Origin: a phage
Direction: 5' to 3' (one strand)
Length of the DNA stretch: 64,000 nucleotides
Assembly: GCA_024614665.1 (NCBI GenBank)
Contig: GCA_024614665.1_4861.1
In this document: one piece after another, positions 60,853-62,837 of the stretch
Layout: each line of letters opens with the position of its first letter
Position numbering within the stretch: position 1 is the first letter of the stretch
Program-made: the position numbers and the translations under genes
The notes under the pieces: generated by a model
What the model was told of the DNA's origin: nothing
Seen by the model: the letters and a program-made list of their open reading frames with translations, nothing else
The model's database searches: none

Positions 60853-61689
60853 TTACTTCATAAGCCTGCGGAGCAGTTCAATTACAAATGGCTCATTCAC
60901 CAGTTTTAGACAGTTATAAATACGGTCCATTGTGGTATCCTGTTTCCAGCTGTACTTCTCTGCGGTTTTTAACACCACACCACGCGTTTTGCGATCGAGG
61001 GGTGAAAACATTATCCCGTCGCCAAACAACGTCAGGAACGCTTTGTTAAACGGAATATGTTGGGGTTTCCCGTTAAGTTTGGTGTACCACTCCAGTTGCG
61101 TTTTCACTTTACCGGTATGTGATTCCAACAAACCCAGTTTAGGGAAATCTTTACGTGCCAGGAGATCAGCTGGCATGTGGGTCAGTAACAGTGTGTCGCG
61201 GCTACCCTCTGGGAAAACATCGAATTGACGGAAGTCATTTTCGTGTTTCTCACCGTACATTTTTAAGGTGTCGTGTTCCAGTGCATTATAGTGCAGCTGG
61301 TTTGGCGTCATCTTATCCTGACCGCCAGCAATGTTTTTGAACGAGGCTTCGGGAAACACTTTGTTAGCGCTACGATAGCTACAAAGGTACGGAACGCATA
61401 ACACCGAAGGGGCTACCGCTCTCGCGGTAGCCGTAAGATTATTAATATCTTCTTCAATCGATGTTAGCATCACGTCGGGTGTTAACCGTTCTCTATTCTC
61501 TTCAAACGCATAGAAGGCGTTACGGAACAATGTCCGGAGATTCAGGTATATTTCCTGATAGGAATGGATAGGCAATTCGCCTTTCCAGTCGGCGTATTCG
61601 CCGGTATGCAGCAGACCTTCAAACGCCAGCGAACTGGCGATTGACACTGAATAGAACCCGAAAGTGCGATCAACACTGATTGGATTCAT
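60853..61689 (-). CDS. hypothetical protein (278 aa)
   Basis: ORF track; 4-nt overlap with upstream gene. Confidence 0.5.
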   Translation of the reverse strand: MNPISVDRTFGFYSVSIASSLAFEGLLHTGEYADWKGELPIHSYQEIYLNLRTLFRNAFYAFEENRERLTPDVMLTSIEEDINNLTATARAVAPSVLCVPYLCSYRSANKVFPEASFKNIAGGQDKMTPNQLHYNALEHDTLKMYGEKHENDFRQFDVFPEGSRDTLLLTHMPADLLARKDFPKLGLLESHTGKVKTQLEWYTKLNGKPQHIPFNKAFLTLFGDGIMFSPLDRKTRGVVLKTAEKYSWKQDTTMDRIYNCLKLVNEPFVIELLRRLMK

Positions 61690-62837
61690 TCTATTTTCCT
61701 AATGATTGCAGTAACAACATCAGGGTCGTACTTCACTGATGTTAGCTCTTCGAGAACCAGCCGTTCGAAGTTCTCAGGAGTAGGTTTTTCGTACACTGGG
61801 GCTTCGTTCGAAAAACTCTTCACTAACAACTCCTCTTCTTCAGAGGAGCGCACACGCTCTCCAGAAATGTGGAACGTGTATTCTTTTTTCCACCGACTGA
61901 CGTATTCGGCCATCGGTGAACCTGCGTAATACTCGACCTCAAATCGCCCAATAGCGGACGAGGGATGATTGTCGATGTATTCTAATGCAGAAAGACAAGC
62001 TGCTAACTGCGCATCAAAGTCTTCCTGTGCCCGAATCTTTTTCTGCGGGCACGCGCGTGGGTTAACCAGGAAATAATCCCTGGCAACCGTATCGGTGAAA
62101 TCGACAAGAGCTACGCCTTTGTCCTCCTCTTCACCTTGAGATAGTCGCTCAGGACTACCTACAACTCTTATCTTGTCTAATTCCTTGGGTCGATGGTCGT
62201 GCCCGATAAATATCAGGTGCTTGACTCTCGGCAACCAGAACTCCTCGTGGAAAGAACGAGGGGACTCGACAGGGAGTTGAAACTGGAAGCAGCCGTGCAT
62301 GAAGATAAAGTCTAACTTCTCCAGGCCTCGTGTCGCCATCAGTTCTGCCATTTCTGCCTCAGTGGCAGCGGCATTAATTTCATCGACGCCAGCAGCTTTA
62401 TATTCGTCCTGCACCCAACCTACCATCGCATCGAGAGCCGGATCGTAAAATATCCCGATCCCTGCCAAATACAAACAGTCTGCGCCTATACTGATGTTCA
62501 GCGACTCAACTATTTTGGACTGGCCGTGGTCATGGGACGGTGTTCCCTCAACGATGCGAACTGCGGTATTAGTGGCCTTAGACCACTGGAGCAACCACGT
62601 CAAGAAGCCCACAGCTTCTTGAGAATCTTCCTGGCGAAGATGTCGGGAATCATCAAATAAATCTCCCGCTATATAAAAGGCGTCAAGCGTATTTTCGCAG
62701 CTAATGAGTACCTCACGTATCACATCCACGATGTGCCAAGTGGGCACACGTTTATGCAATAAATGGATATCGTTAGTGTTCAAAAGGCGCTTAACACCTT
62801 CTGGTTTCTTAGGAGGTTTAGTAATCTTCTCCATCAC
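61686..62837 (-). CDS. calcineurin-like metallophosphoesterase, Mre11/SbcD-type nuclease candidate
   Basis: Ordered phosphoesterase motifs: NDIHL (D-x-H), AGDLFDD (GD-x-x-D), EGTPSHD (GNH[DE]-like), FMHG, IGHDH (GH-x-H). Confidence 0.55.
   Translation of the reverse strand: MMEKITKPPKKPEGVKRLLNTNDIHLLHKRVPTWHIVDVIREVLISCENTLDAFYIAGDLFDDSRHLRQEDSQEAVGFLTWLLQWSKATNTAVRIVEGTPSHDHGQSKIVESLNISIGADCLYLAGIGIFYDPALDAMVGWVQDEYKAAGVDEINAAATEAEMAELMATRGLEKLDFIFMHGCFQFQLPVESPRSFHEEFWLPRVKHLIFIGHDHRPKELDKIRVVGSPERLSQGEEEDKGVALVDFTDTVARDYFLVNPRACPQKKIRAQEDFDAQLAACLSALEYIDNHPSSAIGRFEVEYYAGSPMAEYVSRWKKEYTFHISGERVRSSEEEELLVKSFSNEAPVYEKPTPENFERLVLEELTSVKYDPDVVTAIIRKIE

Follow-up and report, generated by a model that had tools for sequence, protein, structure and literature searches.

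Phage T4 encodes an Mre11/Rad50-type pair, gp47 and gp46, which is needed for recombination-dependent replication and also has a role in host-DNA degradation. For Salmonella phage SPN3US, Thomas et al. (2016, J Virol) identified gp27 as the SbcD and gp186 as the SbcC subunit (PMC5105663). An amber mutant showed that gp186 is essential, and its split ABC motifs were described. The genes for gp27 and gp186 were found to be 'drastically separated' in SPN3US, phiKZ and their relatives, the splitting of functional groups being typical for such phages (PMC5105663). According to Iyer et al. (2021), SbcC-SbcD is practically universal in jumbo phages (PMC7824862). Here we describe a gene of this kind on the minus strand of a 64,000-nucleotide stretch of phage DNA (contig GCA_024614665.1_4861.1), the whole of which we call the window. 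The gene lies at 61686..62837, where a sequence-only reading of the window had reported an open reading frame (ORF) for an Mre11/SbcD-type phosphoesterase; the ORF list does contain it on the minus strand, with 383 amino acids (aa) from a GTG start.

The counterparts of the two subunits in phiKZ have been studied in infected cells. Antisense knock-down of 'Nuclease 065' gave fewer plaques and less ChmA (scored ++/++), and knock-down of 'SbcC-like nuclease 165' had a weaker effect, scored +/+ (PMC12571901). The phiKZ gene orf165 yielded no transposon insertions (PMC12676376). In the phage-nucleus literature (PMC10299810, PMC10643120 and the Goslar preprint) we found no relevant localisation or interaction data on SbcCD-like proteins. 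The 'gp65/gp66' of the Goslar preprint are unrelated capsid proteins. The gene and its family are already known, as are the essential partner and the separation of the two genes; all were published for SPN3US in 2016.

We propose that the product of this ORF is very probably the nuclease subunit of a phage SbcCD/Mre11-Rad50-like complex, which would act together with the distantly encoded gp186 and process DNA ends for recombination-dependent replication and repair. The identity of the gene, its Mre11/SbcD placement, the motifs, the existence of a partner, the co-occurrence of the two genes and the distance between them come from the analysis below, and the essentiality of gp186 and the phiKZ 065 and 165 knock-down phenotypes are taken from the literature.

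Identity and family of the SbcD-like protein

Judged from its sequence, the window comes from a SPN3US-like Salmonella jumbo phage of the genus Seoulvirus, a phiKZ-like, nucleus-forming chimallivirus. Positions 19,953-83,863 of SPN3US match it at 98.8-99.1% identity in reverse orientation. The SbcD-like ORF is 99.7% identical to SPN3US YP_009153321.1, which RefSeq calls 'SbcD-like subunit of palindrome specific endonuclease' and which in the numbering of the Thomas laboratory is gp27, the SbcD subunit (PMC5105663). The more likely start of the gene is the ATG at 62834, one codon downstream of the GTG, because an AGGGA Shine-Dalgarno sequence lies 6 nucleotides (nt) upstream of it and the same start is used in RefSeq; the protein would then have 382 aa. 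It matches PHROG_100 'SbcD-like' (E 3e-64) and is 34% identical to phiKZ ORF65 (E 2e-32). Compared with SPN3US gp27 it carries a few substitutions, none of them material. It is essentially the same protein as SPN3US gp27 and phiKZ gp65 (partners gp186 and phiKZ gp165), and its gene shares their neighbours and their great distance from the SbcC gene.

The family to which this protein belongs is resolved by profile and fold comparisons. We built a profile and an alignment of the SbcD-like family from 31 homologs. When the profile was compared with the PDB, the top 17 matches were all Mre11/SbcD (E 1.5e-8 to 0.015), led by Thermotoga maritima Mre11 (E 1.5e-8), Pyrococcus furiosus Mre11 (2e-6) and Escherichia coli SbcD (4e-6). 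An AlphaFold2 (AF2) model of the protein (pLDDT 91.2, pTM 0.81) was compared with the PDB by Foldseek, and here all 22 top matches were Mre11, with TM-scores of ~0.55-0.6 over 340-400 columns. The best of these was 3tho_B (E 2.4e-12, TM ~0.6), and Mre11 chains from Mre11:Rad50 complexes aligned over their full length (386-399 columns). Additionally, hhalign linked the family to T4 gp47 (probability 80%, E 1.4e-5), and SbcD/Mre11 models were the only NCBIfam models that matched the sequence. Thus, the searches group the product of the ORF with Mre11/SbcD proteins, the identity given to it by the sequence-only reading, and not with phosphatases. That reading had also offered a phosphatase, acting alone or differently; this alternative and that of another metallophosphatase are unsupported, as Mre11/SbcD is the closest class by a wide margin in both kinds of search. 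It had further suggested a nuclease against host DNA, and the protein may conceivably contribute to host-DNA degradation like T4 gp46/gp47. Neither search assigned the protein to a non-nuclease phosphatase family, the result that the sequence-only reading had named as telling against itself. The protein is a very divergent member of the Mre11/SbcD class; therefore, its placement rests on the profile and fold evidence.

Like T. maritima and P. furiosus Mre11 and E. coli SbcD (3tho, 3qg5, 1ii7, 6s6v), the phage protein has the phosphoesterase core, a predicted capping domain, a predicted C-terminal helix-loop-helix and motifs I, II, IV and V. It differs from them in that it is only 13-19% identical to them, has GTPSHD where they have GNHD, and is encoded by a gene that is not in an operon with an ATPase gene. 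T4 gp47 also carries the canonical GNHD.

The phosphoesterase motifs, all on the minus strand, are strongly conserved among the 31 homologs. In motif I, D23-I-H25 (62763..62771), D23 and H25 are invariant; in motif II, G58-D-L-F-D62 (62652..62666), G58 is invariant and D59 and D62 are conserved in at least 90%; in motif IV, M180-H-G182 (62292..62300), H181 and G182 are invariant; and in motif V, G212-H-D-H215 (62193..62204), H213 and H215 are invariant. Motif III is the variant G98-T-P-S-H-D103 (62529..62546), in which G98, T99, H102 and D103 are invariant and P100 and S101 are conserved in at least 94%. The catalytic His-Asp of this motif is kept, and the Asn of the canonical GNH[D/E] is replaced by Thr/Ser together with a two-residue insertion. 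In alignments the variant stands opposite 'G--NHD' of T. maritima Mre11 and 'GN--HD' of T4 gp47. It is invariant or nearly so across the homologs and is found in phiKZ ORF65 too. The sequence-only reading had counted all five motifs as present, which holds only roughly: I, II, IV and V are canonical, and III is GTPSHD and not GNH[D/E]. In canonical Mre11-type enzymes, the Asn of motif III ligates the second metal.

Two further regions of the protein resemble Mre11. A predicted capping domain of mixed beta/alpha structure covers residues ~241-342 (61812..62117, minus strand) according to the AF2 secondary structure, Foldseek and HMMER; in the HMMER alignment of the family profile with T. maritima Mre11, the match runs to profile position 330. 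A flexible linker of lower pLDDT (~331-350) then precedes two C-terminal helices, H357-364 and H372-382, which form a helix-loop-helix in the AF2 model (61692..61769, minus strand). The hydrophobic pattern of these helices is conserved across the 31 homologs, and they sit where T. maritima Mre11 has its Rad50-binding helix-loop-helix in 3tho/3qg5, which are the best Foldseek matches. The C-terminal helix-loop-helix of gp27 is a putative Rad50/SbcC-binding domain, with binding itself presumed from the modelled structure.

The distant SbcC-like partner

The window contains no SbcC-like ORF, in agreement with the statement of the sequence-only reading that no recognisable Rad50/SbcC partner lies nearby. 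A strict search for [GA]xxxxGK[ST] in all stop-to-stop frames of at least 100 aa found no match in the whole window, and with a looser Walker A pattern the sole P-loop-like match in it is an SF2 helicase. Similarly, the SPN3US SbcC-like protein had no match in the window by tblastn (E>2), and the RefSeq annotation of the matching SPN3US segment lists no SbcC-like gene.

The partner is elsewhere, a possibility that the sequence-only reading had raised. It had also suggested a search of the complete genome for an SbcC/Rad50-like ORF, and this search, made on SPN3US, found gp186. According to the SPN3US annotation, NC_027402.1 168900-171410 encodes an 836-aa 'SMC domain-containing protein'; this locus is ~147 kb from the SbcD-like gene and lies outside the window. 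This protein matches PHROG_77 'SbcC-like' (E 4e-96) and the NCBIfam Rad50 model (E 5e-16), and the best PDB matches of its N- and C-terminal lobes are the Rad50 ATPase lobes. It carries a Walker A motif (GGNGCGKT at 36), CPQC at 413 of 836 residues and a signature-like GSKAQ, followed in the C-terminal part by a Walker B/D-loop (LLLDEPSEGMD) and an H-loop (VSH at 797). These motifs are conserved in phiKZ ORF165 and 201phi2-1 gp250, and in all three proteins a zinc hook, C-x-x-C-x-H-x-F-[KR]-P-G, lies at 0.49-0.50 of the length. A coiled coil is suggested by Pfam/NCBIfam SMC-type matches over residues 109-665. By its motifs and profile matches, SPN3US gp186 is a bona fide SbcC/Rad50-like ABC ATPase with a split head. 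It is larger than T4 gp46 (836 vs 560 aa), and its putative coiled coil is longer.

PADLOC matched gp186 to LmuB/JetC-type SMC models. The similarity to LmuB/JetC reflects shared Rad50/SMC ancestry and does not speak for a role in defence; PADLOC found no defence-system match for gp27 or for either of its neighbours. Directly downstream of the SbcC-like gene, and overlapping it, is a 63-aa ORF (SPN3US 171400-171591, outside the window). Thomas et al. pointed to a predicted transmembrane helix in its product, reminiscent of T4 gp47.1 beside gp47 (PMC5105663). In 201phi2-1 a small ORF likewise directly follows the SbcC gene.

The SbcD-like and SbcC-like genes occur together across this group of phages. 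By tblastn the SbcD-like gene is present in 290 phage records and the SbcC-like gene in 298, and for eight of the ten genera listed the two numbers are the same: Pseudomonas (81/81), Erwinia (62/62), Serratia (21/21), Aeromonas (19/19), Klebsiella (16/16), Ralstonia (13/13), Escherichia (4/4) and Burkholderia (4/4). The counts differ for Vibrio (23/22) and Salmonella (24/33). Among the Salmonella phages SPFM5, 7, 9, 10, 12, 14 and 20 (LR5359xx), several records hold short, low-identity fragments of the SbcD-, gp28- and SbcC-like genes, which are ~99% conserved in sister SPFM records. The sequence deposited in these records seems to be corrupted or frameshifted locally; such records account for the Salmonella mismatch.

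Wherever both positions are given, the two genes are far apart. We computed the distance for six genomes: in five it is 113-148 kb on the linear map, and in the sixth, JM-2012, with a genome of 167 kb, it is 130 kb linearly and 37 kb if the genome is circular. T4 is organized differently, as its genes 46 and 47 are ~0.45 kb apart, compared with ~147 kb in SPN3US. The absence of an adjacent partner is due to the scattered gene order typical of phiKZ-like genomes and is not a functional anomaly.

The overlapping neighbours

The SbcD-like gene is flanked by two co-directional genes on the minus strand. Upstream lies a gene for a 224-aa protein (62818..63492; SPN3US gp26; PHROG_5171, of unknown function), whose last ~17-20 nt overlap the SbcD-like start and whose product is weakly similar to phiKZ ORF64 (E 0.004). 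Downstream lies a gene for a 278-aa protein (60853..61689; SPN3US gp28; phiKZ ORF66 family), which starts inside the SbcD-like stop codon in an ATGA stop/start overlap. As the sequence-only reading had noted, neither product has a Walker A motif; neither is an ATPase. The shared direction and the overlaps at both junctions suggest that the three genes form one translationally coupled unit. A promoter/terminator scan of the locus was uninformative, and sigma-70 patterns are not expected for the phage's own RNA polymerases.

The 278-aa protein is homologous to phiKZ ORF66 (E 3e-33). Its gene family is found in 298 phage records, with the same distribution as the SbcD-like and SbcC-like genes, and the gene immediately follows the SbcD-like gene in all of the ~12 genomes listing both positions; these include SPN3US, Asesino, phiKZ, 201phi2-1, Noxifer, PS119XW, RSF1, an Aeromonas phage, Vibrio phages and JM-2012. 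The family is PHROG_3229 ('unknown function') and is annotated as 'hypothetical' in nearly every record inspected. By fold the protein is FEN/5'-nuclease-like: it has the PIN-like alpha/beta core and the helical DNA-binding region of the FEN/5'-3' exonuclease superfamily.

Sequence comparisons gave no such connection. The 278-aa protein had no Pfam, NCBIfam or PDB sequence match (two profile-vs-PDB searches), a Pfam scan of 55 members of its family found nothing, and hhalign of the family with T4 RNase H gave a probability of 0.6%. We also searched 1.8 billion representatives exhaustively with a profile, which gave no link to a FEN family and returned only more members of the same family, 1,402 cluster representatives that are all ~270-300 aa long. 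The acidic positions conserved in at least 90% of the 55 members are E24, D175, E189 and D224 only, and neither the cluster of ~7-8 active-site carboxylates nor membership of a FEN sequence family was found. As there is no sequence link and only four acidic positions are conserved, we describe the 278-aa protein as having a FEN fold and not as a member of the FEN family.

The next gene, at 60131-60826 on the minus strand, encodes the 231-aa SPN3US gp29, which has a Gly/Gln-rich, RGG-like C-terminal tail (GGGSFGRGGYGGGQGGGQRSGGGYQQQQ). SPN3US gp29 is reported to be an essential, non-virion protein and has been described as the counterpart of phiKZ ORF67, the RNA-binding protein ChmC/Imp6 (PMC5105663). 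Pairwise BLASTP of SPN3US gp29 with phiKZ ORF67/ChmC was not significant; the equivalence therefore rests on synteny and the literature.

Proposed role and alternatives

Our model addresses how gp27 could work with gp186. By analogy with the solved Mre11-Rad50 complexes, we propose that a gp27 dimer would bind the head of the dimeric 836-aa gp186 ATPase, making contact through the nuclease and capping domains of gp27 and through its C-terminal helix-loop-helix. Through ATP binding and hydrolysis, the ABC head would then hold DNA ends in a clamp and control access to the di-metal nuclease site. The gp27 nuclease would trim or open these ends and so provide substrates for the recombination-dependent replication and the repair of the phage genome, like T4 gp46/gp47. 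We thus propose by analogy, both with the solved complexes and with the T4 pair, that the two proteins form a complex, that gp27 acts as a nuclease in spite of its motif III variant, and that it has this biological role.

Several observations weigh against this proposal. The single sequence scored below the cutoff for Pfam Metallophos (15.1 bits vs a gathering threshold (GA) of 21.5) and far under the cutoffs of the NCBIfam SbcD/Mre11 models (19 bits vs 450; 11.6 vs 77.65), and phmmer of the single sequence against the PDB returned only noise, so that the family profile was needed. Because the Asn of motif III is absent, activity and metal stoichiometry are not to be assumed. The SbcC-like gene of the window's own genome is expected from relatives that are at least 98.7% identical, and the essentiality of gp27 was inferred by Thomas et al. 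(PMC5105663).

A non-nuclease metallophosphatase acting alone, be it a phosphatase of proteins or nucleotides or a pyrophosphatase like LpxH, is a very improbable explanation. In its favour are the generic nature of calcineurin-like motifs within the superfamily and the motif III variant, which could point to a changed chemistry; furthermore, one homolog carries the JGI source name 'UDP-2,3-diacylglucosamine pyrophosphatase LpxH', and LpxH is among the weak profile and Foldseek matches. In the profile-vs-PDB search LpxH was the best class outside Mre11, but only at E>=0.07 and over the N-terminal ~50 residues, which is 6-7 orders of magnitude weaker than Mre11/SbcD, and by fold its TM-score is ~0.35. 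The Mre11-specific capping domain and C-terminal helix-loop-helix seen with AF2 and Foldseek argue against such a phosphatase, as does the tight co-occurrence with an SbcC/Rad50-like gene. We consider it equally hard to believe that the protein has an Mre11 fold but serves as a catalytically dead scaffold, or that it is an accessory subunit of a polymerase, as are the B subunits of Pol delta/epsilon or PolD DP1. The next Foldseek class after Mre11 does consist of Pol delta/zeta B subunits, LpxH and PolD DP1 (E ~1e-4, TM ~0.33; E 5e-5 to 1e-3 for the Pol zeta/delta B subunits and DP1), and the motif III Asn is lost. However, the inactivated B subunits have lost the metal and catalytic residues that are retained here across divergent homologs (D23, H25, H102, H181, H213 and H215 invariant, D59 in at least 90%), and the TM-score to them is ~0.33 compared with ~0.6 to Mre11.

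A different explanation concerns the partner. It is conceivable, though in our estimate doubtful, that the SbcD-like nuclease works mainly with the overlapping 278-aa FEN-fold protein as a two-nuclease module, instead of or besides the distant SbcC-like ATPase. In one version, Mre11-type 3'-5'/endo cleavage would be combined with 5'-3' resection, like MRN with Exo1 or the archaeal Mre11-Rad50-NurA. Such a module has the conserved, overlapping arrangement of the two genes in its favour, but adjacency is weak evidence of interaction in a phage lineage with conserved local gene order. Moreover, the 278-aa family does not obviously keep the canonical FEN carboxylate cluster, and the protein has no sequence-level link to FEN families. 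In phiKZ, the knock-down of 066 was weak on plaques compared with ++ for 065 (PMC12571901). Finally, co-occurrence with SbcC is equally strong, so the SbcCD model is not displaced. We also put forward, tentatively and as something we think unlikely, that the two ideas combine: the SbcD-like protein and gp28/phiKZ gp66 (>1,400 cluster representatives) would be a conserved, possibly translationally coupled module, which together with the distant SbcC-like ATPase would make a three-component DNA-end resection machine, with GTPSHD marking a lineage-specific change in metal coordination. We found no mention of a pairing of an Mre11-type with a FEN-fold protein in the searchable literature, and the FEN-fold neighbour of the SbcD-like gene may be a new side observation.

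As stated, the finding of an SbcD-like gene far from its SbcC-like partner matters little: both genes and their unusual separation had been published for SPN3US, and SbcCD is regarded as near-universal in jumbo phages. The locus does illustrate that functionally linked genes are scattered in phiKZ-like genomes, which makes gene neighbourhood a poor guide there. For work on nucleus-forming phages, how the enzyme uses metal is a question that can be tested, since the whole family has lost the Asn of motif III, and the strictly syntenic FEN-fold neighbour is a candidate for a missing 5'-3' resection activity.

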